Source of the DNA: Thauera sp.
GTDB taxonomy: Bacteria; Pseudomonadota; Gammaproteobacteria; Burkholderiales; Rhodocyclaceae
Length of the DNA stretch: 64,000 nt
Direction of reading: 5' to 3'
Assembly: GCA_034675825.1 (NCBI GenBank)
Contig: JAUCCW010000002.1
Location: 3,334,205-3,398,204 of the forward strand
Of the stretch, positions 41,304 to 64,000 are shown piece after piece (within the stretch, counting starts at the first letter, position 1; each line of letters begins with the position of its first letter). Position numbers and translations under genes: made by a program. The notes under the pieces are model-generated. The model was not told where the DNA came from and ran no database searches. It saw only the letters and a program-made list of their open reading frames with translations.

Positions 41304-42401
41304 ATGACTAAGACCGTACAGCCCAAGATGGGCGTTATTTTCAAGTCCTACGAGCCACTGGCGGCGATTCGCGCCTACGCAGAGCAAACCGAAGCGTCCG
41401 GCATGACCGGCGGTTTCTGGATCGCAGAAGCCTATCACTGGTTCCGCCAGTACGGGCTGGAAGCCCGGGGCTGTTTCACCACGCTCGCTGTGGTCGCCCA
41501 GGCCACGAAACATATCCCGGTGGGGCTCGGTATCACCTCTCCCTACATGCGTCATCCGACCATTCAGGCTTCCGAGGCCGCAGCAATCGACGAATTGTCC
41601 AACGGCCGCTTCAGCATGGGTATCGGCGTCGGGAAGGTCGGCATCGAATACCTCGAATATGACATCGACAAGATGCGTCCGGTGGCGGTCCATCACGAGT
41701 CCATGGAGATCATGCGCAAGGTCTTCAGCGGCGAGAAGTATACCTACGAGGGCAAGCACTACAAATCGTCGATGCCCGCCTTTGATCGCGCCGGCAAGGG
41801 GCTCCGGACCAGTATCCCGTTGTATGTCGGCGCCACTGGCCCGTTCATGCAAAAGCTGGCCGGTAAGGAGAGCGACGGCATGCTGCTCGCCGGCCTGACC
41901 TCTCCGGAATTCGTCAAGTACGCCATCGACAACATGAAGGAGGGTGCTACCGCGGTCGGCCGTACGCTGCCGGACAACTTCCCTGTGGGTGGGGTCATCC
42001 TTTGCGCCTGCTCCCGCGACGGCGACAAGGCGCGCAATGCGACGCGCAGCTATACCGGCACTTACATCGTCAACAAGATCCGCAACATAAAGAACGACGT
42101 CATCCTTGCTGGCTCCGGTCTGCCCGACAGCGCTTGGGAACCATTCCGCAAGGCGATCGCCGAAGGCACCCAGGACAACGTCACGCACCTCGTTACCGAC
42201 GAGATGATGCGCCGTTTCACCGTTATTTCCGGTACGCCCGAGGACTGTCTGGCGATTACCCAGGAGTTGGTCGATGCGGGTCTTAACCTGCCGCTGCTCG
42301 AAGTTGTCGGCAAGACCGTGGAGGACAACCTCGAAACGATCCGCCTGATGGGCGAGGAAGTGCTGCCGAAGCTCAAGCCTGGCGCTGCAGTCACAGCCTG
42401 A
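41304..42401 (+). CDS. luciferase-like (LLM) oxidoreductase, Mer-like, probably deazaflavin-dependent
   Basis: FWIAEAY, GLGITSPYMRHP..A.EAAAIDELSNGRFSMGIGVG, IPLYVGATGP.M.KLAG..SDG. Confidence 0.85.
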   Translation: MTKTVQPKMGVIFKSYEPLAAIRAYAEQTEASGMTGGFWIAEAYHWFRQYGLEARGCFTTLAVVAQATKHIPVGLGITSPYMRHPTIQASEAAAIDELSNGRFSMGIGVGKVGIEYLEYDIDKMRPVAVHHESMEIMRKVFSGEKYTYEGKHYKSSMPAFDRAGKGLRTSIPLYVGATGPFMQKLAGKESDGMLLAGLTSPEFVKYAIDNMKEGATAVGRTLPDNFPVGGVILCACSRDGDKARNATRSYTGTYIVNKIRNIKNDVILAGSGLPDSAWEPFRKAIAEGTQDNVTHLVTDEMMRRFTVISGTPEDCLAITQELVDAGLNLPLLEVVGKTVEDNLETIRLMGEEVLPKLKPGAAVTA

Positions 42402-42458
42402 AGGCCGCTGCATGCATGGCGTACGAGTGCGCCATGCATCAAAAAAACGGAGAAGTAT

Positions 42459-43379
42459 ATGAAATTGGCAAGTTTCAGAGTCAAGTCGAGCGGCAAATCG
42501 ACGATCGGTGTGGCGCTCGATGACGGCAGCTACCTGGATCTCAACGGTGCGACAAACGGTGGTTTGCCGAGTGCGATGATTTCCTTCCTTGAGATGGGCG
42601 AGAGCGCGATGTCACAGGCGCGCACACTCGCGGCGAAGGCTGCTGCAGGACAGTCGAACGTCGTTTCTGAAGCGGACGTGGAGCTGCAGGCGCCCGTACC
42701 ACGCCCCGGCAAGATCATGCATACATCGTGCAACTTCCCCGGCCACCTCTCCGAGCTGACGACGTGGAAGGCACCGGAGTGGCAGGCGCACAATTGGGGT
42801 GATTTCCATTTTGAACACCCCACCGGCTTTCTCGAGGCACCGTCGAGCGTGGTGCCGACCAACGCATCGGTGGCGATCCCGCACTTCACCAAGCAGCTCG
42901 ACTACGAGATCGAAATCGGCATCATCATCGGCCGGACGGCGTTCCGCGTGTCTCCCGAGGAGGCGCTCGACTACGTCGCCGGCCTGACCATCTTCAACGA
43001 TCTTTCGGCACGCGACATCCAGGCGCGCGAGCACGCCAACAAAGTCATCTTGCTCGGCAAGAGCTTCGACGGCTCCTGTCCGCTCGGCCCGTATCTGGTG
43101 ACGCTGGACGAGGTCGGCGACGTGAATGATCTGGGCATGCAGCTCACGCTCAACGGCGAAGCACGCCAGACCTCGAACTCCGGCCACGTCCACTACAAGA
43201 TCGCCGAAATGGTGTCTTGGTGGTCGAACACCACGCTCGAGCCGGGAGACGTGATTACCTCCGGCAGCCCGCCGGGCGTCATCGCCGGTAGCAAAAGCCC
43301 GGTGTACCTCAAGAACGGCGACCGCATCGACTGCAAGGTCGACAAGCTCGGCACGCTCACCACCTTCATCGTCGACTGA
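42459..43379 (+). CDS. fumarylacetoacetate hydrolase family protein
   Basis: LDYEIEIG, FNDLSARDIQ, GKSFDGSCPLGP, LEPGDVITSGSP. Confidence 0.93.
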   Translation: MKLASFRVKSSGKSTIGVALDDGSYLDLNGATNGGLPSAMISFLEMGESAMSQARTLAAKAAAGQSNVVSEADVELQAPVPRPGKIMHTSCNFPGHLSELTTWKAPEWQAHNWGDFHFEHPTGFLEAPSSVVPTNASVAIPHFTKQLDYEIEIGIIIGRTAFRVSPEEALDYVAGLTIFNDLSARDIQAREHANKVILLGKSFDGSCPLGPYLVTLDEVGDVNDLGMQLTLNGEARQTSNSGHVHYKIAEMVSWWSNTTLEPGDVITSGSPPGVIAGSKSPVYLKNGDRIDCKVDKLGTLTTFIVD

Positions 43380-43394
43380 CCAGGCGAGGCAAAC

Positions 43395-44657
43395 ATGGCA
43401 AACAAAGAACTCGTCAGGAAGGCGACCGACCTGATCGACCGCGACCGGCTGGTCAACCTGACCATCGATTTGACCGACATCCCGAGCCCGACAGGCTTCG
43501 AAGGTGACGTCGCTCGCGCCTACCATGAGGTGCTGCGCGGCTCCGGCTTTGACGCCACATTGCAGCCGATTGGGGACGAACGCTACAACGCGATCGGCCG
43601 GCTGCAGGGTGAGGGCGGCGGCAAGTCGTTGATGTTCAACGGCCACCTCGACACTTCGTTCGGGCCGGAGCAGGCGCACCGCGGCATCGGCTACCAGTGC
43701 AAGGGCACGCTCGTCGACGACGAGTGGATCTACGGCATGGGCTCCTTCAACATGAAGTTCGCACTGGCCAATTACGTCACCGCGGTCGAGGCGATCCGCA
43801 AGGCGGGCATCAAACTCGGCGGTGACGTGGTCATCGCCGCCGTCGCCGGAGAGATTGAGAAAGCGCCGGTGAACGAATACGAAGGCCGTCAGTACCAGGG
43901 TTATGGCGTCGGCACCAAGTACGCCATCACGCACGGTGCGGTCGCCGACTACTGCATCCTTGGCGAACCGACCAACATGATGCTGATCCCGCGCCACTGC
44001 GGAACGAGCTGGATCAAGATCACCGTCCCCGGCCACCTGATCCACACCGCGTGGTCGGAAGTCGAGCGCAACGCCATCAACAAGGCGCGCGCGATTCTAG
44101 ACGCCATCCACGAGTGGATTCCAGACTACGTGCAGCGCAATGCCTTGGGCGACTTTCGCCCGCGCGTGAACGTCTCCGCGATCGAGGGGGGATGGGCCTG
44201 GCGCGGCGCACGCACGCCAGACAACTGTGTGATCTACCTTGACGTGCGCACCCTGCCAGACACGCTGCCGGTGCAGGCGTTTAACGAGGTGCGCGAGATG
44301 GTCAGGGCCGTGGTTCGGGCAAATCCGCAACTCGAAGGCACCAAGACAGAGATTTTCCTGTCGGCCCCTGGCACTTCGATTCCGGACGATCACGAGCTCG
44401 TCCAGAACATCATTTCCGCCCACTCCAACCAACTCGGGAAGGCGCCGCAGATGGGGGTGGAGACTTGGTACAGCGACGCGGCGCACATGAACCGCTACGG
44501 CATCCCGACGGTGAACTACGGTTCGGCGGGCCGCATCCGCACTGGCGGTGGTGGTTTCTCAACCACGCAGGGCGAGCATGTACATATCGGCGACATGATG
44601 GACATCGTCAAAGTCTACATCGAAGTGATGATGAACCTTTGCGGCGTCGTCGAATAA
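43395..44657 (+). CDS. M20 (ArgE/DapE-like) metallohydrolase with atypical metal ligands
   Basis: FNGHLDT, YGMGSFNMK, AGEIE, GEPT, SDAAH, PTVNYG. Confidence 0.85.
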   Translation: MANKELVRKATDLIDRDRLVNLTIDLTDIPSPTGFEGDVARAYHEVLRGSGFDATLQPIGDERYNAIGRLQGEGGGKSLMFNGHLDTSFGPEQAHRGIGYQCKGTLVDDEWIYGMGSFNMKFALANYVTAVEAIRKAGIKLGGDVVIAAVAGEIEKAPVNEYEGRQYQGYGVGTKYAITHGAVADYCILGEPTNMMLIPRHCGTSWIKITVPGHLIHTAWSEVERNAINKARAILDAIHEWIPDYVQRNALGDFRPRVNVSAIEGGWAWRGARTPDNCVIYLDVRTLPDTLPVQAFNEVREMVRAVVRANPQLEGTKTEIFLSAPGTSIPDDHELVQNIISAHSNQLGKAPQMGVETWYSDAAHMNRYGIPTVNYGSAGRIRTGGGGFSTTQGEHVHIGDMMDIVKVYIEVMMNLCGVVE

Positions 44658-44735
44658 TCCGACGTGGACAGACCCGGCATCGGGACGGCTCTGCGGAGCT
44701 GAACGTTTCCAGGGAAATATGGAGGTTCAAATCCC

Positions 44736-47114
44736 ATGGGCATCAAGACAGACAGACTTCTGGAATTGGCGCGCCCCGATGCTGACGTCGCTCTGGCCCT
44801 GGCCGACTGCCAGACCCTCGAAGAGGTTCAGGTGCTGGCGGCATCGATCAGGGACCACGGGCACGGGGCCGTGGTCACCTATTCGCCAAAGGTTTTCATC
44901 CCGCTTACACAGCTGTGCCGCAATGTCTGCCACTACTGCACTTTTGCCAAGGTGCCGAACCAAGACAAGGCGCCGTATCTGTCGCCCGACCAAGTGCTCG
45001 ACATCGCGCGTGCCGGTGCGCGCGCCGGATGCCACGAGGCACTCTTCACCCTGGGCGACAAGCCGGAGTTGCGCTATGCCCAGGCGCGCAAGGCGCTCGC
45101 CGCGCTGGGGCATGACTCCACGCTGTCCTACCTTGCCGACATGGCGCGGCGGGTTCAGCAGGAAACAGGTTTGTTGCCGCATCTGAATGCAGGGGTGATG
45201 ACGGCGCAGGAACTGCAGGCGCTGCGTACGGTTTCGGTTTCACAGGGCCTGATGCTGGAGAGCATTTCTCAGGAACTGTGCGAACGCGGGGGGCCTCACC
45301 ATGGTTCTCCCGACAAGCAGCCGGCACTCCGGCTGGAAATGATCGCCGCCGCTGGCCAGCTCAGGATTCCCTTTACCTCCGGGATTCTCATCGGTATCGG
45401 CGAAACCAGGCGACAGCGCATCGAGGCGCTCCTGGCGCTACGGGGCCTGGACGACGAATACGGCCATGTGCAGGAAATCATTATCCAGAATTTTCGCCGG
45501 AAACCCGGTACCAAGATGGCGGATGCGCCGGAGCCATCGATCGAGGATCTGTGCTGGACGATTGCGGTCGCGCGGATCATCTTCGGCGCGGGGGCGAACA
45601 TTCAGGCACCGCCCAATCTCTCGCCACAGTCGATCATTGCCCTGATCCGCTCGGGGATCAACGATCTGGGCGGTGTGTCGCCGGTGACGCCCGATCACGT
45701 TAACCCGGAAGCGCCTTGGCCGCACCTGCGCCTCATGGAGCGGGAAGTGGGTATGGCGGGCAAGGTCCTGGTGCCGCGCCTGCCGCTCTATCCGGTATGG
45801 GTACAGCAACTTGAACAGTGGGTGGATGCCGGGCTTCAGCAAGCAGTGCGCTCACGTGTTGACGCCAGCGGCTTTCCGCGTACCGATGGCTGGTCTCCCG
45901 GCGAGGGTACGCTGCCGCCGAAGATGCCGGATTATCCGCCGGGCGATCGGCTCTTCCGTTTCCTGGGTAACGAAATCTATCGTTCCGCCGAGAGGGCGGC
46001 CTGCGGTATCCGCCTCTCCGAACGGGAGGTGGCGCGCCTGTTCGATGTTCGCGGGGGTGAGTTCCAACTGCTCTGTGCCGCGGCCGACGAGTTGCGGGTC
46101 CACGTAAATGGCGACGCGGTCACCTACACCGCCAACTGCAACATCAACTATACGAACATCTGCACCTACAAATGCCAGTTCTGTGCCTTTTCGAAAGGGA
46201 AGGTTGGCGACGGACTGCGAGGCAGAGCCTATGATCTGCCGCTTGCCGAAATCCAGCAAAGGGCCTCGGATGCGTGGGATCGCGGTGCGAACGAAGTCTG
46301 TCTGCAGGGGGGCATCCACCCTTCCTATACCGGCCGGACCTATCTGGACATCTGTCGGGCGATTAAGATCGCGCGGCCGGCGCTGCACATCCATGCCTTC
46401 TCCCCGCTCGAAGTCTGGCAGGGCGCGGCGACGCTCGGCGTGCCGCTGCGCGAGTATCTTGCGGAGCTGAAAGCGGCAGGGCTTGGGTCGCTGCCGGGCA
46501 CGGCGGCGGAGATTCTCGACGACCGGGTACGCAAGATCCTTTGCCCCGACAAGCTCACCGTTAAGCAATGGGAAGAGGTGATGCGCACCGCCCACAGCAT
46601 CGGCCTCAAGAGCACGGCGACCATCATGTACGGGCACATCGAGCAGCCCGAGCACTGGGCCCGGCATCTGCTCTTCCTGCGTGATCTGCAGGAAGAAAGT
46701 GGTGGATTCACGGAATTCGTGCCCCTGCCGTTTGTGCACATGCAAGCGCCGATCTTCCGGCGTGGCCGAGCACGGCCGGGGCCGACCTTCCGCGAGGCGG
46801 TGCTGATGCACGCGGTGGCGCGTCTCGTGCTCCACCCGCTGATCGGAAACATCCAGACTTCGTGGACGAAGATGGGGCGCGAAGGGGCCGGCGTCTGTCT
46901 GCAGGCCGGCGCCAATGACTTGGGAGGCACCCTGATGAATGAAAGCATCAGTCGTGCGGCCGGTGCCGAGCATGGCCAGGAGATGACGCCCAAGGATTTG
47001 GAAGCTGTGATCCTGTCGGCTGGCCGCCTGCCTGTCCAGCGCAACACCCTCTACGAACCCGTCACGCCCCGCGATTACGTATCGGCGGCGGCATGTCCTG
47101 TGGCAGTCGCGTGA
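44736..47114 (+). CDS. fbiC: bifunctional FO synthase (CofG-CofH fusion)
   Basis: Two radical SAM domains: VFIPLTQLCRNVCHYCTF...PFTSGILIGIGET...NDLGGVSPVTPDHVNPE and NINYTNIC..C.FCAF...GSLPGTAAEIL...GANDLGGTLMNESISRAAG. Confidence 0.95.
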   Translation: MGIKTDRLLELARPDADVALALADCQTLEEVQVLAASIRDHGHGAVVTYSPKVFIPLTQLCRNVCHYCTFAKVPNQDKAPYLSPDQVLDIARAGARAGCHEALFTLGDKPELRYAQARKALAALGHDSTLSYLADMARRVQQETGLLPHLNAGVMTAQELQALRTVSVSQGLMLESISQELCERGGPHHGSPDKQPALRLEMIAAAGQLRIPFTSGILIGIGETRRQRIEALLALRGLDDEYGHVQEIIIQNFRRKPGTKMADAPEPSIEDLCWTIAVARIIFGAGANIQAPPNLSPQSIIALIRSGINDLGGVSPVTPDHVNPEAPWPHLRLMEREVGMAGKVLVPRLPLYPVWVQQLEQWVDAGLQQAVRSRVDASGFPRTDGWSPGEGTLPPKMPDYPPGDRLFRFLGNEIYRSAERAACGIRLSEREVARLFDVRGGEFQLLCAAADELRVHVNGDAVTYTANCNINYTNICTYKCQFCAFSKGKVGDGLRGRAYDLPLAEIQQRASDAWDRGANEVCLQGGIHPSYTGRTYLDICRAIKIARPALHIHAFSPLEVWQGAATLGVPLREYLAELKAAGLGSLPGTAAEILDDRVRKILCPDKLTVKQWEEVMRTAHSIGLKSTATIMYGHIEQPEHWARHLLFLRDLQEESGGFTEFVPLPFVHMQAPIFRRGRARPGPTFREAVLMHAVARLVLHPLIGNIQTSWTKMGREGAGVCLQAGANDLGGTLMNESISRAAGAEHGQEMTPKDLEAVILSAGRLPVQRNTLYEPVTPRDYVSAAACPVAVA

Positions 47115-47151
47115 TGTCTGAGTCCATGTTCTCAACTGTCGTCAAAGCCAA

Positions 47152-47991
47152 ATGATCAATGAAAGAAACCCAAGTGTGAGCGGCCAGTCCCTGGTCGAAA
47201 TCCTGTCGAAAGCCAGTATCTACGATCTTGGCCAGGCTTATTGGCCGAGTATGCCGGTGCACCCTTTCGATCCGCCGTTCCAGTTCTTCCTTTACCGTTA
47301 CCACGAATACGTGCGCAAGTCGTTTGACGAGATGGGCATCCAGCCTGGGTTCTCCGACGCCATCAGCCTGATCGTGACGTCCATGCATTCCGGCACGCAT
47401 TTCGACCTGCCGATCCACATGTCCGAAAACCTGCAGGTGATGGGTATCGATGTTACCCCTTACCAGCGCGACACCGGCTTCAAGGATCTTCCCGAGCCAC
47501 TGCACAGCATGGAAAAGGTTCCCCCGCTGCTGCTGCGTGCCGTGCTGCTCGATATTCCCGCCTACAAGGGGCTGGATACCCTGCCCGAATGCTACGCCAT
47601 CACGCCGGAGGATCTGGAAGGCGCGGCGGCGACGCAGGGCGTGACGATCAACGAAGGGGACTGCATCCTGATCCGGACCGGCTACGCGCGTTATTTCGAG
47701 ACCGACCGCGAAGCCTATCTCTACAAGTGGGCCGGCCTCGGCGACGAGGCTGCGTACTGGGTTGCCGCCCGCAAGCCCAGGCTCGTCGGCATCGACAATC
47801 TGTCGCTGGGCGTCCCGACGCCCTTCACCAGTCACCGCGTCATTCTCGTCGAAGCCGGCATCTATCTGATGAAGAGCCTGACCCTGGAGGCGCTCGCGGC
47901 GAGCGGGAACTACGTCAGCACGGTGGTGGTGCTTCCGCTGAAAATAAAGGGCGGCGAGGCCTCGCTGGTCCGCCCCATCGCAATCGCATGA
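47152..47991 (+). CDS. cyclase family (kynurenine formamidase/isatin hydrolase-like) metal hydrolase
   Basis: HSGTHFDLPIH (HxGTHxDxPxH), ILIRTG, VGIDN, PLKIKGGEAS.VRP. Confidence 0.9.
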   Translation: MINERNPSVSGQSLVEILSKASIYDLGQAYWPSMPVHPFDPPFQFFLYRYHEYVRKSFDEMGIQPGFSDAISLIVTSMHSGTHFDLPIHMSENLQVMGIDVTPYQRDTGFKDLPEPLHSMEKVPPLLLRAVLLDIPAYKGLDTLPECYAITPEDLEGAAATQGVTINEGDCILIRTGYARYFETDREAYLYKWAGLGDEAAYWVAARKPRLVGIDNLSLGVPTPFTSHRVILVEAGIYLMKSLTLEALAASGNYVSTVVVLPLKIKGGEASLVRPIAIA

Positions 47992-49220: not shown

Positions 49221-49365
49221 TTTCCGCCACGGGGGTAACATCTGTCGTGATATGAATGACTGGTAGAGGCGAAAAAGAGACCAGATCGATCTGGCGCGCT
49301 TCGACAACAGTCTTGTGAAATCCGGTGTAGGTGGTAGCCGGATTGGTGCTGGAGGAGGAGTGGAC

Positions 49366-50316
49366 ATGAATATGCCGGTTGCCGCAAGGCCCTTGCTGGA
49401 CTGCGTTTGCGATTCTGTGGTGCGTGTCACCGCACAGCAGCTTGGTGAGCCTTTTGAACATTACGCGGTCAATCTCGTCAAAGTTTCGAACCTGACCATT
49501 TACCGCATCGAGAGCGATCCGGTCGCCGTCTTCAGGTTGCCGGAGGATATCCTTGCCGACCGTATTTTCGACGTGTTGTTGCATGTCCAGTTGGAGGGTA
49601 CGGCGGAAATCACCCAGGAGGGGAAGCGCTTCATCCTCAAGGAAAATGCTCTGGCGATCGTGCCGGGCGGCGTTCCCTACAGCGTGAATTACCCTGAAAG
49701 GGGGCGCAAGATTATTCTGCGCATTCCCTATCGTGTCTTCCACGAGCGCTTGCTCGGACGAGAAGTGGGCGATTTCGGTGCAATGACATTCGGCAGTGAC
49801 GGATTGGTGCCCGTCGTTATTTCGCTGATCAAGTCGCTAATACTGGAAGAGAAATCTCGGCTTACAGACATCGATCAGTTCACCTTGGCAGAAAGTCTTC
49901 TGTTGCTGATCGGATCCGTGATTCGCTCGCGCAGGAGATCGAGTGTCGGGGAACGCGACAGGAATCAAGGGGCCCGGTTGTGCCGGATCCTGTCCTATAT
50001 CGAAGAGAACTTCTCCGACCATCAGTTGACGCCGACACGCATCGCCGAGGCCAACTTCGTTTCCGTCCGCCATCTGCATGGACTGTTCCAGCAATGCGGC
50101 ACATCGGTGAGCAAATGGATATGGAACCGCAGGCTCCAGGCCGGGCGCGAGGATCTCCTTGATCCCGACAAGGCGTCCAGGACTGTTTGTGAGATCGCCT
50201 ACAGCCGTGGTTTCAACGATTCCGCGCATTTCAGCCGGACGTTCAAGGAGCGCTTTGGCATCTCGCCGGGGCAACTCAAGTCCAAGGCCTTTAGCGGAAC
50301 TCTGATCGAGAGCTGA
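49366..50316 (+). CDS. AraC family transcriptional regulator (FeaR-like N-terminal domain)
   Basis: C-terminal double HTH: VSVRHLHGLF...RRLQAGREDL...IAYSRGFNDSAHFSRTFKERFGISP. Confidence 0.92.
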   Translation: MNMPVAARPLLDCVCDSVVRVTAQQLGEPFEHYAVNLVKVSNLTIYRIESDPVAVFRLPEDILADRIFDVLLHVQLEGTAEITQEGKRFILKENALAIVPGGVPYSVNYPERGRKIILRIPYRVFHERLLGREVGDFGAMTFGSDGLVPVVISLIKSLILEEKSRLTDIDQFTLAESLLLLIGSVIRSRRRSSVGERDRNQGARLCRILSYIEENFSDHQLTPTRIAEANFVSVRHLHGLFQQCGTSVSKWIWNRRLQAGREDLLDPDKASRTVCEIAYSRGFNDSAHFSRTFKERFGISPGQLKSKAFSGTLIES

Positions 50317-50390
50317 TGCTGGGTGCCCTTCCAGCCGATGTCTGGAAGCTCCACGTCGGCGTCGCCTGCTTATTCAAGGAGCATGCCGTC

Positions 50391-51137
50391 ATGCCACAGA
50401 AACTGTCCAGGAAGGTCGCCGTTGTCACCGGGGCTTCCCAGGGAATAGGCGCAGAGATCGCCAGGTGCCTCGCTGGGGCCGGGGCCGCTGTCGTAGTGAA
50501 CTACAACTCTCGCCGCGACGGCGCGGATCGCGTGGTCGCGGCAATTACCGCCGCCGGCGGCAGTGCGGTCGCCATTCAGGCCGATGTTTCGGATTCGCGG
50601 CAGGTGGAGCGGATGTTCGCGGAAAGCGTCCAAATCTTCGGGCCGATAGACATCCTTGTGAACAATGCAGGCGTTGTCGACGCCGCGCCGCTTGGCTCAA
50701 TTACACCCCAGCATTTCCACCGCCTGTTCGAGACCAACGTTCTGGGTTTGATCCTGGTCACCCAGGAGGCCGTCAAGCATTTTCGGCCTGAGGGCGGCAG
50801 CATCATCAATACCAGTTCCGATGTGAGCACCGTTGCGCCGCACGGTATGGGGGTCTATAGCGCGACCAAGTCTGCCGTCAACAGTCTGACCCGGACGTTC
50901 TCGAAGGAACTGGGAGCGCGCAACATCCGCGTGAACGCCATCAATCCCGGCCCGACTGAGACCGAAGGCGCCCACGCCCGCGGCTCGATCGAGCAGTTCC
51001 GGGAACTGGGGAAGCAACGCGCCCTGAAGCGGATTGGCCGCCCCGAAGATATCGCGCCCCTCGTGGCATTTCTCGCTTCTGACGATGCCTCTTGGATGAG
51101 CGGAGAAGCGTATTACATCACAGGGGGACTCTGCTGA
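50391..51137 (+). CDS. short-chain dehydrogenase/reductase
   Basis: TGASQGIG, NNAG, YSATK, IRVNAINPG. Confidence 0.95.
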   Translation: MPQKLSRKVAVVTGASQGIGAEIARCLAGAGAAVVVNYNSRRDGADRVVAAITAAGGSAVAIQADVSDSRQVERMFAESVQIFGPIDILVNNAGVVDAAPLGSITPQHFHRLFETNVLGLILVTQEAVKHFRPEGGSIINTSSDVSTVAPHGMGVYSATKSAVNSLTRTFSKELGARNIRVNAINPGPTETEGAHARGSIEQFRELGKQRALKRIGRPEDIAPLVAFLASDDASWMSGEAYYITGGLC

Positions 51138-54868: not shown

Positions 54869-54896
54869 GATTGTCTCCTTTGTCCGTCTTCGCGTC

Positions 54897-56075
54897 CTAG
54901 GCGCCGATCGCGCGTAGGGTTCCGGCCAACTGCGACAAGCTTTGTAGGCTGTGTGCAGGCAGGAGATGATCAAGGTACGGCAGCGCGCACTGCATGCCCT
55001 GCGTAAGTGGCTGGTAGCCCGGCGTGCCGAGTAGTGGGTTGAGCCACAGTACCTTTTGCGCGCGCTGGCGCAGTCTGGCCATCTCGCTGCGCATTTCTGC
55101 AGCATCGCCGCGGTCCCAGCCATCGCTGAGGAAGATCACTGCGGTCCGTCCCTTGAGTATGTGCGGTGCGTGGCGCTCGTTGAATTCGCGCAGGCTGCCG
55201 CCGATGTTGGTGCCACCGGCCCAGTCGTTGATCCTGTCCGCCACTTGCCGCAGTGACGCCGCGACGCCCCGGCTCCGCAGCAGGTCGGTAATCACCGTCA
55301 GGTGGGTTGAGAACACCGCGACTTCGAGGTCTGACAGTTCGCGGCGGAGGGCGTACATGAATTCGATGAGGAAGTTGCTGTAGCGCTGCATCGAGCCGCT
55401 GACATCGCACAGCAGCACCAGGCGAGTCTTGTTGATGCGACGGCTACGGTAGGGCAGGGGGCAGATGCCGTCGGCCAGGTAGATCGAGTGGCTGCGCAGC
55501 AGCCGGTGCAGGTCGGGGGTGCGGCCGTGGCGGTGAGAAACGTGGCGACGGCCGCGCTTGTTGGCCAGCGCGGCGACCATCTCGCGGATCAGGCGTTGTG
55601 CGCGTTCGATGTCGGCATCGGTGAGCGTGCCGAGGTCGCGCCTGGCGAGCACCTCTTCAGGGCTGTAGGATAGTTTGAGCGGCTTTTGCTCCTCGCCGTC
55701 GGCGCCGCCTTCATCGCTTGACAGCATCAGCCTGTTGCTGCGGCCGCTGTCGGCCGCATCGTTCTCGTCGTCCGAACCCTCCCGCCACCTGCGGATTGGC
55801 TCGCGTTTCGGCGATACCCAGTACTGTGCAAAAACGGCATCGAAACGCGGGATGTCTTCGCGTCGTGAGACCAGCGTGGCCCGCGCCGCAGCATGGAAAT
55901 CGTCGCGCTGCGAGATGTCGATGAAGTCGAAGCACTGGCAGAGGTCGATCAGATTGCCTGGATTGACCGCCAGCCCGGCTTCACGCAGGGCCCCGGAAAA
56001 GCCGACCACATGTTCGAGGAGGGTCGGTAGGTGAGGGAGGGCGGACGTTTCCATATCCGCATCCGGCCTGTTCAC
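54897..56075 (-). CDS. coxE: VWA-domain CoxE-like protein
   Basis: LCDVSGSM MIDAS, WAGGTNIG, IFLSDGWD, WLNPL. Confidence 0.9.
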   Translation of the reverse strand: MNRPDADMETSALPHLPTLLEHVVGFSGALREAGLAVNPGNLIDLCQCFDFIDISQRDDFHAAARATLVSRREDIPRFDAVFAQYWVSPKREPIRRWREGSDDENDAADSGRSNRLMLSSDEGGADGEEQKPLKLSYSPEEVLARRDLGTLTDADIERAQRLIREMVAALANKRGRRHVSHRHGRTPDLHRLLRSHSIYLADGICPLPYRSRRINKTRLVLLCDVSGSMQRYSNFLIEFMYALRRELSDLEVAVFSTHLTVITDLLRSRGVAASLRQVADRINDWAGGTNIGGSLREFNERHAPHILKGRTAVIFLSDGWDRGDAAEMRSEMARLRQRAQKVLWLNPLLGTPGYQPLTQGMQCALPYLDHLLPAHSLQSLSQLAGTLRAIGA

Positions 56076-57025
56076 GTGCAGAACTGCGCTGCGGTAGAAG
56101 GATCGTGGCCCGGCATCAAAGCCATTTCGACCAGGCCGTCAAGTCCGAGCTGGCGCAGTTTTTCACTGTCGCCCCGGTATTTGAGAATACAGCCGAGCGT
56201 TTCCTCAACGGCAGCCGTATTGAGTTCCGCAACGCGCAGGGCGAGCAGGGCACGCGCCCAGTCGATGGTTTCGGCGATTCCAGGTCGCTTGTAAAAATCA
56301 TGCTCGCGCAGCAGCTCCATGAAACGGCAGACCTGGCCGGCAAGGCGCAACTCGACCGCCGGCAGGTGTGCGCGCAGGATCGTGACCTCCCTGGCGAAGC
56401 TCGGATAATCGATCCAGTGGTAAAGGCAACGGCGCTTGAGGGCGTCGTGCACTTCGCGCGTGCGGTTTGAGGTGAGGATGACGAGGGGAATGTGGTGCGC
56501 GTGCAGCGTGCCGATTTCCGGAATGGTGATCTGGAAGTCGGACAGCACTTCGAGCATGAACGCTTCGAACTCCACGTCCGAGCGGTTGACCTCGTCGATC
56601 AGCAGCACCGGCGCTCGTGGGCCCTCGCTGCGCAGCGCCTTGAGCAGGGGGCGCTGGAGGAGGAATTCCTCGGAGAAGAGGTTGTGCCCGATCCGTGCCT
56701 GGTCGACACCGCGCGCTTCCTGCAGGCGCAGTTCCAGCAACTGGCGGGTGTAGTTCCATTCATAGAGCGCCGCGTTGCTGTCGAGGCCCTCGTAGCACTG
56801 CAGGCGGATCAGCTCGGTGTCGAGGGTGCGCGCCATGACCTTGGCAATTTCGGTCTTCCCTACACCCGGCTCGCCCTCGACGAACAGCGGTTTGCCGAGC
56901 ACCATCGAGAGGAACAGGGTCGTTGCCAGCGGGCGGTCGGCGATATAGCCCTGCGCGGCGAGGCGCTCCTGAATCTCGTCGATGGAACCGAAGCCCGGAA
57001 TTGCTTCCCTGCTCTTGTCAATCAT
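56072..57025 (-). CDS. coxD: MoxR family AAA+ ATPase (CoxD-like)
   Basis: EGEPGVGKTE, RLQCYEG, LLIDEV, TSNRTREVHDALKRRC. Confidence 0.92.
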   Translation of the reverse strand: MIDKSREAIPGFGSIDEIQERLAAQGYIADRPLATTLFLSMVLGKPLFVEGEPGVGKTEIAKVMARTLDTELIRLQCYEGLDSNAALYEWNYTRQLLELRLQEARGVDQARIGHNLFSEEFLLQRPLLKALRSEGPRAPVLLIDEVNRSDVEFEAFMLEVLSDFQITIPEIGTLHAHHIPLVILTSNRTREVHDALKRRCLYHWIDYPSFAREVTILRAHLPAVELRLAGQVCRFMELLREHDFYKRPGIAETIDWARALLALRVAELNTAAVEETLGCILKYRGDSEKLRQLGLDGLVEMALMPGHDPSTAAQFCT

Positions 57026-60000: not shown

Positions 60001-60162
60001 GATGCCCACAGAAACCTTCACCACCGCGGTACTGGCATCCTTCATCTCCAGGCGGGAAAAGGTGGGCAATAGCGGGGCGAACTTCTGCGGGTCGGAAAGC
60101 AGATTGAACACTTCGACGGGTGGCGGCGAGACATCGAATTGGCCGGAAAACTTCATTTCCAT
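57046..60162 (-). CDS. xanthine dehydrogenase family Mo-binding large subunit with N-terminal CoxG (SRPBCC) domain, 1038 aa
   Basis: First about 148 aa CoxG-like; then RKEDGRLIRG.G.FVDD, RSPYAHARI, GGSFG, GQGHET, GQVHG..A.GIG, KGMGEGG; TAATG overlap with the small subunit gene. Confidence 0.9.
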   Translation of the reverse strand: MEMKFSGQFDVSPPPVEVFNLLSDPQKFAPLLPTFSRLEMKDASTAVVKVSVGIGKIRGTASTQLTLQNKTEPTHATYVGTGKVMGGAYTMTTSFDLEPKGSGTLVKWKGEVLLVGKILSLAGGGMQGYAEQQINAVITSLQQAMSPQGHKAEPPALKSAGLLLRMMRLLGLARIPEAADITSESATTIVAELTMGWTGTGKADQTLKVRTPLKSIGRNKDFSGIVDRQASDKWVHAALSRKEDGRLIRGQGLFVDDYKVEGMLHMSLVRSPYAHARILRVNTTHAEALPGVVCTLTGAEIAAVCNPFMQIGPGTAQNIRDFSLAVEKAIYQGEPVVAVIAENPRIAADAAQLVDVEYEALPVATDWKSALEDRAVLHPGMGTNHHWQGLYEFGDIENAFAEAAHVVKIDQMDFHRTASTPLETHAVVAAWHPTGGVDLFCNNSFPAIAIQMIAPALGLSIDQIRCKTQDIGGSFGVKIGNYPYMALAALASKKCGGRSVKWVEMRNEHMLAGGHGGERTFLDTEVALDKEGVITAVRSRHIDDCGAYPRYEPLGCVIWSQVLPACYKVRNLRIDFNQVVTNKGPASPNRGYSRLQHLWFMERVIDICAHSLNIPSDEMRLRNYVREFPYTTPNGCVYDSGDYPLMLQKAKALIGWDEWKKKQAEARAEGRWLGIGIGTTLDSGTNNFGQARIVNPHLPFSGNSEVATIKLDIDGTVVVTLGSTPSGQGHETTTAQVVADELGIRPDMVEVRTGFDTAANSHSGHSGSYASQFAVTGLSAVYGACQKLKREMRMLAAFALEANEDDLEFTVGQQGPELRVKGTERGINYWALSSMVNINTASQPSTLADITLNIRHVYRPPFEIPDVNKKMGNLTLTYASQLHIAVIEVDRLTYVPKILSYAAIDDCGSVINPKIVAGQVHGAVAHGIGSALTEAHIYDKDGNLLTSTFTDYAPITSMGMPDLLFDDIETPSPFSYNGAKGMGEGGGAPLHTVSAAIQDALFGENVIIRQSFNSPNALYDAVKRADRVTAVNVVSRID

Positions 60163-60659
60163 TATCGACTCTCCCCGGCGTCGTTTGCTACCGCCTCGAT
60201 CGCCTTCAGTATGTTCTGGTAACCCGTGCAGCGGCAGACGTTGCCAGCAATTGCCTTGCGAATCGTCTTGCGGTCGGCGTGGGGCGTCTCGCCGAGCAGG
60301 GCGTGTGCGGACATCAGCATGCCAGGCGTGCAGTAGCCGCACTGCAAGCCGTGATGTTCGGAGAACGATCTTTGTAAGGGGTGCAGCTCGCCATCCCTCT
60401 CCAGCCCTTCGACAGTGAGGAGCTCGCCGCCGTCGGCCTGAACCGCGAACAGGGTGCAGGATTTCACCGGCGCGCCGTTCAACTGCACCGTACAGGCACC
60501 GCAGTAGCTCGTATCGCAGCCGATGTGTGTGCCGGTGAGATACAGTTCTTCGCGCAGGAATTCGACTAGAAGCAGGCGCGGTTCGACTTCGCGGCAGTAC
60601 TTCTGTCCATTTACCGTCACCTCGATGGTGATCAGCGGAATGATATTAGGCATAGACAT
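60162..60659 (-). CDS. [2Fe-2S] small subunit of molybdenum hydroxylase (CoxS-like)
   Basis: GCDTSYCGACT, HGLQCGYCTPG, GNVCRCTGY. Confidence 0.95.
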   Translation of the reverse strand: MSMPNIIPLITIEVTVNGQKYCREVEPRLLLVEFLREELYLTGTHIGCDTSYCGACTVQLNGAPVKSCTLFAVQADGGELLTVEGLERDGELHPLQRSFSEHHGLQCGYCTPGMLMSAHALLGETPHADRKTIRKAIAGNVCRCTGYQNILKAIEAVANDAGESR

Positions 60660-61542
60660 GGCTTCCTTCGACGCTTGCGTTTGCGCAACGGCGCATGGCG
60701 ACGCTGGCGGCCTGCAGCAGGAGACCGCGCAGCAGGCTGTGCTTGTATTCGGCGGTGCCGCGAATATCGCTGTTCGGTTCGGCGATCGCGCTGGCGGCTT
60801 CTGCCGCACGCGTCCAGAGCGACTCCGACAAGGCCCTGCCGCGCAGTTCCGCTTCGGCCTGCAGGGCGCGCCGCGCGGTCGGGCCGGCGCCGCCGAGCAC
60901 AATGCGCACGTCCTGACAGACTTGGCCCGCGTCGAGCGTGAGCTGGATGCCGACCGAACACACAGGGAAGGCCGCCGCTGATTTCTTGTAAGCGATGTAG
61001 GCGCCACCGCTGTCCTTCGGAGGCGCCCGGAAGCGGACCGCGACCACCAGTTCCCCGGGGGTCAGGGCGGTGGTATAGGCAGCGGTGATGAAGTCCTGGA
61101 TAGAAATCGTTCGGTCACCCATAGGGCCGGAACAGAGTACTTCCGCGTCGAGGGTGTGGAGTAGGGCCGGCCAGTCGCAGTTCGGATCTGCGGCGCTGAC
61201 TGATCCGCCGATCGTGCCCCGGCTGCGAACCTGGGTGTCGGCAATGCCGCCGGCACAGTCGCGGACGATCGGAATGTGCGCAGCGATGTCGGATTTGGCC
61301 ACCCAGCCGTGTGGCGAGAGCGCGCCGATGCGTACCCAGCCGTCCCGTGTCTCGGCGAAACGGAGGTCGGGCAGGCGACCAATGTTGACGAGGTCCACCG
61401 GTTCGTCCATCCTCAGTTTCAGGATGGGAATGAGCGTCTGCCCGCCGGCCAGAGGCTTGGCGCCTTCGCCCAATGCGGACAGCATCTGTATGGCTTCCTG
61501 CAGGGAGGTGGGACGATGATACCGAAATGGTGCTGGGTACAT
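60646..61542 (-). CDS. FAD-binding medium subunit of molybdenum hydroxylase (CoxM-like)
   Basis: LAGGQTLIP, IADTQVRSRGTIGGS, DIRGTAEYK. Confidence 0.94.
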   Translation of the reverse strand: MYPAPFRYHRPTSLQEAIQMLSALGEGAKPLAGGQTLIPILKLRMDEPVDLVNIGRLPDLRFAETRDGWVRIGALSPHGWVAKSDIAAHIPIVRDCAGGIADTQVRSRGTIGGSVSAADPNCDWPALLHTLDAEVLCSGPMGDRTISIQDFITAAYTTALTPGELVVAVRFRAPPKDSGGAYIAYKKSAAAFPVCSVGIQLTLDAGQVCQDVRIVLGGAGPTARRALQAEAELRGRALSESLWTRAAEAASAIAEPNSDIRGTAEYKHSLLRGLLLQAASVAMRRCANASVEGSHVYA

Positions 61543-61745: not shown

Positions 61746-62486
61746 TCATCTTTCTGCGGGGCACGATAGGTTTGTCTGCGGCGGCATCGCCCCCTGTGGG
61801 AGGCGGACTCCTCTCTGAGTGCACGCGGCCGTTGTTGCAAGGAGGAAAACGGCGGTTGCCTGGCCGGCCAGTTCGCCGCAGGCGTGCGCCAGCATCAGGG
61901 CTTGGAGGTCGTCGGGTTCATCAATGTCGGCCGCCAGCGCCGCATCGTGGATCACGTCGAAGGGGACAGCGGCCGCTGCAGCGCTCTGGCAGAAGCGGGG
62001 CAGGCTGTTCTTGCCGAAGACCAGAGGCAGGGGCAGGGGTACGGGAGCGAGCAGGAGGTTCGTTCCGCTGCCCTGCTTGCAGGCGGCGGCTCGCATCCGC
62101 GTTGGGGGCGTTTCTCCGGTCCCGGAAACGAAGCGGTTGACGGCCTGTGGTGTGAGGCGCGGCAGGTCAGCGTGGACGATGAGAACGTGCGTCGCGCCCT
62201 GCGTGCCGGCCCAGGCGGCTGCGGCCGCCAGGTCCTCGTTGAGTCCCTGGGCGCACCGGGTATCGAAATGTGCGATTGCATCGATGCCCATCCGTTGATC
62301 CAGGGCGGGGATGTCGCTGACCAGGACCACCCGCGCGACCGTTCGCGAATGCTTAAGCACTGTTGCCACGTCCATCGTCATCGCCAGCGCCAGGGCATGC
62401 CTTGCCTCGGCGCTGAGTGCAGAGGCAAGGCGGCTCTTCGCGCAGCTGAAATCCTTGACCGGAACGAGCGCCCAGACCCGCTTCAT
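61746..62486 (-). CDS. cofC: 2-phospho-L-lactate/PEP guanylyltransferase
   Basis: VPVKDFSCAKSRLA, GLNEDL, HADLP, GTNLL, FGKNS, DIDEPDDL. Confidence 0.9.
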   Translation of the reverse strand: MKRVWALVPVKDFSCAKSRLASALSAEARHALALAMTMDVATVLKHSRTVARVVLVSDIPALDQRMGIDAIAHFDTRCAQGLNEDLAAAAAWAGTQGATHVLIVHADLPRLTPQAVNRFVSGTGETPPTRMRAAACKQGSGTNLLLAPVPLPLPLVFGKNSLPRFCQSAAAAAVPFDVIHDAALAADIDEPDDLQALMLAHACGELAGQATAVFLLATTAACTQRGVRLPQGAMPPQTNLSCPAER

Positions 62487-62956
62487 GGCTGTTTCGCCAG
62501 TTCGTCGTAGAACTCCATGCAACGGCGTGCGACCGTCACCTTGTCGGCCAGCATCTGCATCACGATGTTTGCCGAAATCACCTGCGGGCCCGACAGCGTA
62601 TTTTGGTCTGTAGCGTCGACTACGTAGCCGTCGAGGAAACCAGCATGGTGGACGGCGACTCCTGAGGTCGAGGGTTCGGCGGTCACTTCGCGCTCGGCTC
62701 CGCAGTACTGGATGTCCTTCACTGCGGGCGCACAGCGCTCTCCGTTGAAGTGTGTTTGGAAGGACACGAGCTCGGTCGCGGTGTCGATGTCCGGGCGGAT
62801 CGACCGGTCGAGATGATCGAAATCGTCACCCGTGTTGACGACAATGGTCAGCCGTTCGGGGGTCAGGACGTGGCTGAGGCCCAGCGTTAGCTTGGCACCG
62901 CCGATGCCGCCTAGCGCGAGGTAGTGTTGCGACCGCCACGGGAGATTGTCAGGCAT
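62483..62956 (-). pseudogene. cofD: 2-phospho-L-lactate transferase with large in-frame internal deletions (157 aa vs about 300+)
   Basis: GGIGGAKL and NTGDDF..L...I.PDIDT, then F..ERC.P.V, then the C-terminal LDGYVVD; the GWG/LGDRD and PSNP/AVSP blocks are missing. Confidence 0.8.
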
Positions 62957-62964
62957 TGCGGGCG

Positions 62965-63759
62965 TCAGAGAAACTTGTCCTGGGTCGTCGGCCGGATCAG
63001 ATCGGCAGCCCTGCCGTTGCCGCTGAAATCGACGCCGCGTACGACCACGATGGGCAGGCGCTGGATGGAGGGGCCCATCAAGATGGATGCGCCCGCGGCG
63101 ACTTCATCGGCCTGTGCGATTTCCGTGACCTCCAGTTCACGTCCGGCGAGATCGGGCTGGCCGCGGTAGTCCTTGAGCGCGTCGATGCCGGCGCTGCCGA
63201 TGCAGACGCCACAGGTGCCGAGGCGCCACGGACGGCCGAAGCTGTTGACGATGAGAACGCCGATGTCCACGCCACAGGCCCCGCGTATGCCCTCCCTTAG
63301 TGCGGCGGCGCTGCGATCTGGGTTTTCGGGTAACAGCAGCATCTGCGACTCGCCGGTGTCGATGTTGGAACGATCGATGCCGGCGTTGGCGCTGACGTAA
63401 CCGAGCCGGTGGCGCACGATGAGCAGGTCCCGGGCGCAACAAACGATGCGCTCGGATTCGCGTAGGATCATCTCGACCATGCGCGGATCCTTGCCGCACT
63501 GCGCCGCGACCGAGTGCGCGTGCGGCGAGACTTCGACGCTGTCGAAGGTCACGTATCGATTTTCGGACTTGGAGACGATCTTCTGGGTAACGACAAGGAT
63601 GTCGTGGGCGCGCAGGGTCAGATCATTGTCCCGCAGGTTTGTCAGGATCAGCGGCAGCAGCGGTTCCCCTGGCCGGACCATCGGAAAGCCCATGGGTGCG
63701 AACATTTCCAAGCGCCGGGGAGCGGTGCCGCGTTCAGTATGCGGCGTGCTGGCAAGCAT
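62965..63759 (-). CDS. cofE: coenzyme F420-0:L-glutamate ligase
   Basis: DILVVTQKIVSKSE, KDPRMVE.IL.ES, ANAGIDRSN, LLPENPD.SA, SFGRPWR, ADEVAA; SD GGAGG before ATG 63759 (alternative ATG at 63807). Confidence 0.9.
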   Translation of the reverse strand: MLASTPHTERGTAPRRLEMFAPMGFPMVRPGEPLLPLILTNLRDNDLTLRAHDILVVTQKIVSKSENRYVTFDSVEVSPHAHSVAAQCGKDPRMVEMILRESERIVCCARDLLIVRHRLGYVSANAGIDRSNIDTGESQMLLLPENPDRSAAALREGIRGACGVDIGVLIVNSFGRPWRLGTCGVCIGSAGIDALKDYRGQPDLAGRELEVTEIAQADEVAAGASILMGPSIQRLPIVVVRGVDFSGNGRAADLIRPTTQDKFL

Positions 63760-63809
63760 GTCGATTTCCCTCCGTTGTCCCGCCAGCCGGTGGGCCAGCG
63801 GGTTCATGC

Positions 63810-64000
63810 TCAGGACTCCAGCGCCTTGACGTGAGTGATCACTTCGCCGATGGCCTGCTGCGCGCTGCCGTACAACATGCGGCAGTTGTCCTTGTAGAAC
63901 AGCGCGTTCTCGATGCCCGAGTAGCCCGCACCCTTGCCGCGCTTGACGACGATGACGTTGTGCGCCATGTCGACGTTCAGGATGGGCATGCCGTAGATCG
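63810..64000 (-). CDS. pntB: NAD(P) transhydrogenase beta subunit, 3' end (continues beyond window)
   Basis: IYGMPILNVDMAHNVIVVKRGKGAGYSGIENALFYKDNCRMLYGSAQ matches the NADP(H)-binding domain III. Confidence 0.92.
   Translation of the reverse strand, partial: IYGMPILNVDMAHNVIVVKRGKGAGYSGIENALFYKDNCRMLYGSAQQAIGEVITHVKALES

Follow-up and report, generated by a model that had tools for sequence, protein, structure and literature searches.

In the nicotinate fermentation of Eubacterium barkeri, a water-dependent molybdenum hydroxylation is followed by low-potential reduction of 6-hydroxynicotinate and by oxygen-free hydrolytic ring opening and deamination, with a ferredoxin-dependent reductase, a single enamidase of the amidohydrolase superfamily, a B12 mutase (2-methyleneglutarate mutase), methylitaconate isomerase, and dimethylmalate lyase as its enzymes. 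NaaA, the 5-nitroanthranilate aminohydrolase, operates in an oxygenase pathway of Bradyrhizobium. The nicotinate (hxn) pathway of Aspergillus nidulans comprises, in order of action, a hydroxylase of the xanthine dehydrogenase (XDH) family (HxnS), an enzyme that saturates the hydroxylated pyridine ring (HxnT), an SDR-family enzyme (HxnW), a cyclic imidase of the PuuE/deacetylase fold that opens the ring by C-N hydrolysis (HxnM), and an amidase (HxnN) (PMC9304392). In the Npd system of Rhodococcus and Nocardioides, which acts on picrate and 2,4-dinitrophenol, a Mer-like enzyme adds hydride from F420H2 to an electron-poor ring, and Fno recharges the cofactor from NADPH; according to the same 2021 review of F420, no F420-dependent enzyme of Proteobacteria has been studied, and the role of the cofactor there is open (PMC8498797). 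Here, we analyzed a 64-kb window (the whole stretch of DNA under study, 64,000 nucleotides of contig JAUCCW010000002.1 from Thauera sp. assembly GCA_034675825.1; all coordinates are those of the window), in which a gene cluster running from 41304 to the window end joins an F420-class oxidoreductase and F420 synthesis genes to a molybdenum hydroxylase. We estimate a probability of roughly 0.55 that the two operons of this cluster together specify a single pathway for the catabolism of an activated aromatic or N-heteroaromatic acid, with its own cofactor supply and a mechanism of ring reduction and hydrolysis.

The preliminary description of this DNA had drawn a parallel to clostridial nicotinate fermentation, and the parallel extends to pathway logic only: Pfam and NCBIfam scans found no enamidase, B12 mutase, methylitaconate isomerase, or dimethylmalate lyase among the cluster's 21 genes. 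With the fungal hxn pathway, the cluster shares the logic of hydroxylation, saturation, and imide hydrolysis; relatives have a PuuE-fold protein in the ring-amidase slot and the window has an SDR, a likeness of logic rather than of established orthology. The fungal reductase, however, is an FMN-dependent old yellow enzyme fed by NAD(P)H and preceded by two O2-dependent monooxygenases, whereas the window has a Mer-like F420-class oxidoreductase of the LLM family, its own deazaflavin synthesis, and no monooxygenase, plus an NaaA-type M20 hydrolase, a fumarylacetoacetate-hydrolase-family enzyme (FAH), and a synthase resembling isopropylmalate synthase (IPMS). The Npd system differs in being actinobacterial, in its nitroaromatic substrates, and in having neither a Mo hydroxylase nor NaaA/FAH partners. 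NaaA (5k8m) aligns with the window's M20 protein over its whole length, including the GEI(E/D) motif and the long conserved stretch after it, but only about one-third of the residues are identical. Quinoline 2-oxidoreductase, Mo-CO dehydrogenase (CODH), and 6-hydroxypseudooxynicotine dehydrogenase share the L/S/M architecture and the accessory coxD, coxE, xdhC, and mocA genes; in contrast to the quinoline 2-oxidoreductase/CODH group, the window has CoxG on the N terminus of the large subunit and no CODH Cu-binding loop. Full-text literature searches yielded no description of this gene set, and neither they nor the 2021 F420 review held a match to a characterized pathway, in line with what had been supposed from the DNA alone. 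By its gene content, the cluster would be of a known kind, a catabolic cluster in which a Mo hydroxylase acts first and ring reduction and hydrolytic opening follow, and what would be new is a reductant, a deazaflavin, made by the cluster itself.

Conserved linkage of the two operons

Scans with Pfam and NCBIfam confirmed every gene that the preliminary description had listed, in the order and orientation it gave. The plus strand carries genes for LLM, FAH, M20, FbiC, cyclase, IPMS-like synthase, AraC, and SDR; the minus strand, read in its own direction, carries pntB', cofE, a cofD remnant, cofC, coxM, coxS, coxG-coxL, coxD, coxE, moaA, separate genes for the N and C domains of XdhC, and a MoCF_biosynth-MocA fusion. 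The operons converge on a 96-bp spacer between the ends of the SDR and MocA-fusion genes, in which no terminator or promoter was detected, counts being at shuffle level.

An LLM-anchored scan, based on alignment of the LLM protein and limited to one genome per species, yielded 80 loci, in which neighbors were counted within 10 kb. The nearest loci were in Rhodocyclaceae metagenome-assembled genomes (MAGs; Sulfuritalea and Azonexus), with LLM identities of 88 to 93%, as expected of the betaproteobacterium that had been proposed. Other carriers were Thiodiazotropha clam symbionts, sponge-associated and sediment Gammaproteobacteria, Halieaceae, Woeseiaceae, Wenzhouxiangellaceae, and Afipia/Hyphomicrobiales; across beta-, gamma-, and alphaproteobacteria, LLM identity was 75 to 94%. 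FAH lay near the LLM in 76 of the 80 loci, M20 in 73, FbiC in 55, the IPMS-like synthase (HMGL) in 49, and AraC in 37, and at least one F420 gene was present in 45 of the 53 loci of 19 kb or more. A ring-amide hydrolase was also found in 49 loci, of the cyclase family in 15 and of the PuuE/cyclic-imidase fold in 34, and an XDH-family enzyme in 19, of which 11 were orthologous to that of the window. What stays constant is an LLM-FAH-M20 core together with a deazaflavin supply, and the hydroxylating enzymes look like exchangeable front ends. The cyclase-family and PuuE-fold proteins share one slot between fbiC and the synthase gene (PuuE-like proteins, for example, at L020:16081-16962 and L063:15749-16636), a clean case of non-orthologous displacement between two unrelated folds; which fold fills the slot depends on lineage, where the preliminary description had named the cyclase. 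In the Afipia and Hyphomicrobiales copies, fbiC and HMGL lie without a ring amidase between them.

Linkage was also found in the reverse direction, where it stood out even more clearly. Among 27 loci with at least 15 kb of flank in a CoxG-L-anchored scan of metagenome contigs, an NaaA-like M20 was nearby in 24, the LLM in 22, F420 genes in 15, and FAH and the IPMS-like synthase in 14 each. These contigs were mostly from Terriglobales (Acidobacteriota). In one of them (L149), fno-cofH-cofE-cofC-cofD-cofG is divergent from coxM-coxS-coxGL-apbA-M24-M20-M24-apbA-LLM, with HMGL-FAH on the opposite strand, and the LLM is likewise Mer-like, matching the F420 class over the FMN class. The Terriglobales version (L149 and about 50 other soil metagenome loci, L094-L167) has cofG and cofH split, two M24 and two ApbA genes around M20, and a FAH of 398 aa that is extended at its N terminus; LLM proteins of its family are very common in soil metagenomes, with 6635 of the scored candidates related at E ≤ 1e-40. 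An Arenicellales chromosome (L057) has coxM-coxS-coxGL-coxD-coxE-LLM-fno on a single strand, and in L038, L051, L052, and L065, coxLSM is divergent from araC-LLM-FAH-M20-fbiC-PuuE/cyclase-HMGL-apbA-apbA-M24. The convergent layout of the window is retained in L086 (79% nucleotide identity), cofE, cofC, and coxM are contiguous in the window and in L012, L014, L092, and L093, and homologues of the MocA fusion adjoin the LLM cluster in L023, L045, L056, L062, and L066. The claim that the operons belong together thus withstood a check of co-occurrence run both ways, and we consider it highly probable that they form one functional unit.

The LLM proteins of Rhodocyclaceae are 88 to 91% identical to those of Afipia, Hyphomicrobiales, and alphaproteobacterial loci, one of which lies on a 498-kb Afipia contig, and the LLM, FAH, M20, and HMGL proteins of three alphaproteobacterial loci (L009, L016, and L017) are 79 to 91% identical to the betaproteobacterial copies. 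Because the copies of the two classes are far closer than the classes themselves, this comparison suggests that the cluster spread horizontally. Its earlier designation as an island is supported only by this cross-class near-identity and by an IS21 element at the left edge but not by base composition, as the G+C content of 41 to 64 kb (0.60 to 0.67) is the same as that of the rest of the window.

The Arenicellales chromosome (OZ244194.1) carries two LLM paralogues about 35 kb apart. That of L057 follows coxMS(G)L-coxDE and has fno behind it, and that of L066 lies in an LLM-FAH-M20-fbiC-cyclase-HMGL operon; a second CoxSL set, without CoxG, is located just upstream.

Enzymes of the cluster and a proposed route

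The LLM gene starts with an ATG at exactly 41304, preceded by a GGAGAG ribosome-binding site. All 13 of the best NCBIfam matches of its product are F420-class families (E values of 1e-51 to 1e-17), with FMN-type families beginning at about 1e-14, and its best solved relatives are six Mer structures (145 bits). The Mer equivalog cutoffs are not reached (176 versus 349 for TIGR03555 and 168 versus 276 for NF002619); these scores and the gene context rule out both a true Mer and a methanopterin pathway, and family scans of the 64-kb window showed no methanopterin-pathway genes. By these comparisons, the protein is a Mer-like F420-class enzyme, not Mer, and is predicted to bind F420 or FO and to transfer hydride. 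Its place beside fbiC agrees with the F420 class proposed initially, as do the fno, cofCDE, and FbiB-like nitroreductase genes that relatives add. Dependence of the pathway on a deazaflavin is, in our judgment, likely.

Among the hydrolases, the M20 protein had been described as a generic deamidase, an assignment that we replace: it aligns with NaaA from residue 14 to 417 (14 to 422 in NaaA), and the next solved relative scores 58 bits. This full-length similarity points to an NaaA-type enzyme, predicted to swap an amino group beside a carboxylate hydrolytically. The nearest solved relatives of FAH are 8sky and L-2,4-diketo-3-deoxyrhamnonate hydrolase. Enzymes of this kind split or decarboxylate 1,3-dicarbonyl acids. 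The IPMS-like synthase (real start, 48006) scores 338 bits against the IPMS subfamily, below cutoff and with no equivalog reached, and 199 bits against homocitrate synthase 6ktq; it is 60% identical in the Terriglobales clusters, that is, between phyla. It contains LRDGEQ and HWHGHND, and we take LRDGEQ and HxH to be typical of acetyl-CoA Claisen (2-oxoacid) synthases. The synthase does not fit the scheme that had been proposed, and of the roles weighed for it, capture of glyoxylate, oxaloacetate, pyruvate, or 2-oxoglutarate, none was supported. Among relatives, only the nearest, L005 and L086, conserve the SDR.

The molybdenum enzyme has the complete architecture of the XDH/CoxL family, with a large subunit (hammerhead and two MoCo-binding domains), a small subunit (two [2Fe-2S] clusters), and a medium subunit (FAD), and a full maturation set accompanies it (moaA, split xdhC, the mocA fusion, coxD, and coxE). 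The coxG-coxL gene starts at Met61 of a 1098-aa open reading frame (ORF), a Met that overlaps the coxS stop, and the ORF contains GMGEGG at about residue 1042, the catalytic-glutamate motif of XDH-family enzymes. Solved relatives of CoxL are quinoline 2-oxidoreductase (351 bits), CO dehydrogenases, and 6-hydroxypseudooxynicotine dehydrogenase (330 to 351 bits), compared with 123 bits for xanthine dehydrogenases. A motif search of the 1098-aa ORF for the CODH active-site loop, YR[CG][SAP] (AYRCSFR in form I and AYRGAGR in form II), found none, which rules out a CO dehydrogenase; CODH models score 410 to 470 bits against cutoffs of 950 to 991, and no equivalog is reached. The enzyme can be kept, as first described, as a hydroxylase of the XDH-family type. 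A 2026 survey (PMC13240472) describes CoxG as the point at which CODH-type enzymes bind quinone and let their electrons out. Because it is fused to CoxL here, the fusion suggests that the electrons of hydroxylation go to the quinone pool.

From these assignments, we infer the substrate class as well as the direction and order of all reactions. The CoxM-CoxS-CoxG/L enzyme would be a molybdopterin-cytosine-dinucleotide-dependent hydroxylase, matured by MoaA, the split XdhC, MocA, CoxD, and CoxE, that puts water-derived oxygen on the ring to give a pyridone- or enone-like product, with electrons passing via [2Fe-2S] and FAD to quinone at the fused CoxG. The Mer-like LLM would then give hydride from F420H2 or reduced FO to this ring, producing a cyclic beta-enamino acid whose C-N bond would be hydrolyzed by the M20 enzyme, by analogy with the attack of NaaA on the amino carbon beside the carboxylate. 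The cyclase-family hydrolase would remove the remaining amide or imide, a step that would fall to the PuuE/cyclic-imidase fold in most other lineages, and FAH would cleave or decarboxylate a 1,3-dicarbonyl acid. AraC would be the likely pathway regulator, with the IPMS-like synthase and the SDR acting downstream. For the cofactor, FbiC would make FO, and CofC, CofD, and CofE would make F420; relatives would recharge it from NADPH via Fno, and here pntB adjoins.

The four-step F420 pathway is not intact in the window: FbiC, CofC, and CofE pass their equivalog cutoffs, and CofD fails. All that is left of CofD, the cofD* of the preliminary description (whose xdhC(2) corresponds to the split N- and C-domain genes), is a 157-aa in-frame remnant, with about half of a protein of about 320 aa gone, that aligns only to residues 126 to 159 and 349 to 414 of the L008 orthologue; the other cluster genes are intact. 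Synthesis of F420 by the cluster, as originally claimed, is thus upheld for three of the enzymes and not for cofD in this strain. The gene is intact in L007, L008, and L093, the last being the nearest cox relative (84% CoxG-L identity), and none lies between cofE and cofC in the Rhodocyclaceae MAGs L012 and L014, so its loss appears to be recent and recurrent in this Rhodocyclaceae branch. There may be a second cofD elsewhere in the genome, FO may suffice, or the pathway may be decaying; with cofD gutted, the pathway in this strain may be impaired or FO-only.

As a side observation, pntB in the window and pntAB in Thiodiazotropha (L001, L002, L020, and L021) adjoin cox/cof genes, in these two distant lineages only, which could reflect NADPH supply for F420 reduction or coincidence.

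Table 1. Coordinates and supporting matches of the cluster genes and of the insertion element at their left
Feature	Position	Strand	Evidence
Mer-like LLM oxidoreductase, F420 class, 365 aa	41304-42401	+	PF00296 176 bits, residues 23-337
FAH, C-C hydrolase or beta-keto-acid decarboxylase type	42459-43379	+	PF01557 201 bits
M20 metallohydrolase, NaaA (5-nitroanthranilate aminohydrolase) type	43395-44657	+	NaaA 5k8m match 188 bits
FbiC (CofG-CofH fusion), FO synthase	44736-47114	+	NF006687 1099 bits > 1018 CofGH equivalog cutoff
Cyclase-family metal-dependent amidohydrolase	47152-47991	+	PF04199 92 bits; HSGTHFDLPIH metal-binding motif intact
HMGL-like isopropylmalate/homocitrate-synthase-like enzyme, 404 aa	48006-49220	+	PF00682 236 bits
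AraC-family regulator, FeaR-like N-terminal domain	49315-50316, start uncertain	+	HTH_18 and AraC_binding_2; FeaR model 121 bits, below cutoff
SDR	50316-51137, start uncertain (248 aa in relative L086)	+	adh_short_C2 214 bits
MoCF_biosynth domain fused to MocA (molybdenum cofactor cytidylyltransferase)	51234-52847	-	NTP_transf_3 145 bits, MoCF_biosynth; MocA/YgfJ model 152 bits
XdhC C-terminal (Rossmann) maturation factor	52844-53539	-	XdhC_C 139.5 bits; start from ORF translation
XdhC/CoxI N-terminal-domain protein, 107 aa, own gene	53536-53859	-	Assigned by reading sequence
MoaA (GTP 3',8-cyclase)	53897-54871	-	TIGR02666 334.5 bits > 284 cutoff; aligned from ORF residue 87
CoxE-like VWA maturation protein	54897-56075	-	VWA_CoxE 190 bits
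CoxD-like AAA+ ATPase	56072-57025	-	AAA_5; MadB-family ATPase model 266 bits, below cutoff
CoxG (SRPBCC)-CoxL fusion, molybdopterin large subunit, 1038 aa	57046-60162	-	COXG, hammerhead, MoCoBD_1, MoCoBD_2
CoxS, small subunit, two [2Fe-2S] clusters	60162-60659	-	Fer2_2 and Fer2
CoxM, FAD-binding medium subunit	60646-61542	-	FAD_binding_5 and CO_deh_flav_C
CofC (guanylyltransferase of F420 synthesis)	61746-62486	-	TIGR03552 124.5 bits > 105 cutoff
CofD remnant, 157-aa in-frame ORF	62483-62956	-	TIGR01819 70 bits vs 257 cutoff
CofE (F420-0:glutamate ligase)	62965-63807	-	TIGR01916 239 bits > 181 cutoff
pntB 3' end (NAD(P) transhydrogenase beta), cut by window end	63828-64000, last 57 codons 63828-63998	-	tblastn, Thiodiazotropha PntB residues 404-460, 42% identity
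IS21-family element	38868-40955	-	istB 39007-39786, istA 39783-40913

Competing explanations

Several observations weigh against a single catabolic pathway as we propose it. Only 19 of the 80 LLM loci have an XDH-family enzyme within 10 kb, and others carry enzymes of the dimethyl sulfoxide (DMSO)-reductase family or a Rieske dioxygenase, so that the pathway may be fed from its periphery by several enzymes, of which the Mo hydroxylase is one. Although it ranks with the best-conserved members, the IPMS-like synthase has no place in the scheme, as is also true of the two ApbA reductases and the M24 hydrolases found elsewhere. No transporter in the window points to a substrate, the LLM could work oxidatively and reduce F420, and in this strain cofD is nonfunctional and no fno lies in the 64 kb. 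Only about 350 bp separate the end of the IS21 element from the LLM start, and homology to L086 begins only at 41254, 50 bp before the LLM ATG, by which we judge the native promoter region of the operon to have been replaced. Metatranscriptome contigs that are 90 to 99% identical to the window and span both operons (four runs in all, from one freshwater and one bioreactor study) are weak evidence that close relatives transcribe both in the same samples, as these are assembled contigs and DNA carryover is possible. As to the substrate, a pyridine carboxylate of the nicotinate/6-hydroxynicotinate type is a first guess and an unlikely one; it fits the LLM, M20, amidase, FAH, and glutaryl-CoA dehydrogenase but leaves the synthase, ApbA, and M24 unexplained. 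Substrates may also be anthranilate-like, quinoline or indole derived, dipicolinate derived, or purine-like, and among the candidate schemes considered on paper (dipicolinate/chelidamate, kynurenate, quinoline, indole, pterin, and pantothenate), the evidence favors none over another.

The same core chemistry could instead act on a carbocyclic amino- or hydroxyaromatic acid such as an anthranilate, with the LLM dearomatizing the ring, M20 removing the amine, FAH opening the ring to a pimelate- or glutarate-type acid, and the Mo hydroxylase, DMSO-reductase-type enzymes, and Rieske dioxygenase as interchangeable activators. The closest characterized M20 does act on 5-nitroanthranilate, LLM-FAH-M20 is the only invariant core, and a glutaryl-CoA dehydrogenase is a neighbor. 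Moreover, in sponge-associated Gammaproteobacteria (L024, L029, L036, L047, L069, and similar loci), LLM-FAH-M20-fbiC is followed by an acetylene-hydratase-like Mo/W enzyme (703 aa, 363 bits to 2e7z) and, in most, joined to a benzoate/anthranilate-dioxygenase-like Rieske alpha/beta pair, without synthase or ring amidase. We nevertheless regard a carbocyclic substrate as rather unlikely, given that N-heterocycle hydroxylases are among the nearest solved relatives of CoxL and that the slot for a ring-amide hydrolase is filled in 49 of 80 loci; to our knowledge, an unactivated benzene ring is beyond the reducing power of F420H2 (about -340 mV). A purine, pyrimidine, or ureide pathway would combine an XDH-like hydroxylase, a PuuE-like ring opener, M20/M24 amidohydrolases, and a ureidoglycolate-lyase-like FAH, and it would give the IPMS-like synthase a role in capturing glyoxylate or oxaloacetate. 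The PuuE-like protein of relatives matches allantoinase PuuE end to end, and several C-N hydrolases occur in relatives (M20 plus one or two M24), but the window has a cyclase-family protein in its stead, M20 is NaaA type and the top 25 NCBIfam matches listed for it include neither a carbamoylase nor an allantoate-amidohydrolase family, CoxL scores 123 bits to xanthine dehydrogenases against 351 to quinoline oxidoreductase, and such a pathway has no obvious need for a low-potential hydride. It seems to us improbable.

Low odds of the same order attach to a biosynthetic LLM operon, in which the synthase, M20, and FAH would build a modified deazaflavin, another cofactor, or a small metabolite, and the Mo enzyme would be near by virtue of shared redox use. 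The mid-operon position of fbiC, the condensing-enzyme motifs of the IPMS-like enzyme, and the unusual conservation of LLM and M20 (75 to 93% across classes) would suit such a role; AraC-type regulation, variable peripheral oxidoreductases, glutaryl-CoA dehydrogenase, nearby uptake-type transport genes, and hydrolases of catabolic type would not, and no ligase, nonribosomal peptide synthetase/polyketide synthase, or tailoring enzymes were seen. Very improbable, finally, is that the operons are unrelated neighbors, a CO- or aldehyde-oxidizing cox energy module beside a separate set of F420 enzymes. In its favor, the best NCBIfam matches of CoxL are the CODH group-5 model and glyceraldehyde dehydrogenase, both below cutoff, and 61 of the 80 LLM loci have no XDH-family enzyme within 10 kb; against this stand the absent CODH loop, reciprocal co-occurrence across phyla, the contiguity of cofE, cofC, and coxM here and in four relatives, and the single-strand coxMSGL-DE-LLM-fno array of L057.

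Genomic setting and implications

Other genes recur beside the cluster in relatives. These include fno and a nitroreductase-family gene, the latter assigned by reading its sequence and seemingly similar to the C domain of FbiB; glutaryl-CoA dehydrogenase, assigned in the same way, in 7 loci; and two ApbA-type reductases, one or two M24 hydrolases, a GST, a free-standing CoxG, and an RND/MMPL-BNR-DUF1302-DUF1329 transport set. Alternative oxidoreductases include a PsrA/ArrA-like complex of the DMSO-reductase family with FdhD. A pyrogallol-transhydroxylase-like role was considered for an 874-aa DMSO-reductase-family neighbor in relatives and was unsupported, the best matches being to ArrA and thiosulfate reductase and weak. 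A search of the 64-kb window for fno, nitroreductase, gcdH, apbA, M24, a PuuE-like gene, and the DMSO-reductase set found none of them, and the window likewise lacks the 874-aa enzyme, the acetylene-hydratase-like enzyme, and the Rieske pair.

The first 37 kb of the window is ordinary chromosomal housekeeping in content (purB, secDF, tgt, queA, accA, tilS, a TRAP transporter, rlmN, rodZ, ispG, hisS, der, hflXKC, hisZ, and purA). A PAS sensor histidine kinase adjoins the TRAP transporter, which is of the dicarboxylate type (DctP and DctM found), at 15561-20828; the cluster lies some 20 kb away, with no visible connection to them. The IS21-family element has 26-nt terminal inverted repeats at 38899-38924 and 40904-40929, with an extra repeat copy at 38868-38887. 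Where the window has this element, L086 has a gene divergent from the LLM (L086:1-2685) that encodes an 895-aa protein of unknown family, and other Rhodocyclaceae have a DMSO-reductase-type enzyme. A plasmid origin was considered and rejected, as the LLM operon had no match and the cox operon gave only a 155-bp match at 77% identity. Run metadata place the sequence in metagenomes from bioreactors, landfill, soil, and wastewater, habitats that point to no substrate.

Taken at its broadest, and as a possibility that we hold to be doubtful, the cluster would be the main physiological use of F420 in Proteobacteria and Acidobacteriota, a widespread CoA- and oxygenase-free dearomatization of hydroxylated (N-hetero)aromatic acids by F420H2 after quinone-linked Mo hydroxylation, horizontally spread and abundant in soils, sediments, wastewater, and animal symbionts. 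If the proposed pathway is right, aromatic and N-heterocyclic rings would be broken by a deazaflavin-driven route without oxygenases, which would bear on N-heterocycle turnover in anoxic wastewater, sediments, and symbioses, and biocatalysis would gain a new family of F420H2-dependent ene/ring reductases along with NaaA-like C-N hydrolases. By tying fbiC, cofCDE, and fno to one conserved enzyme set in at least 80 species-level genomes and a great many contigs of soil metagenomes, the cluster offers a testable answer to why Proteobacteria make F420.

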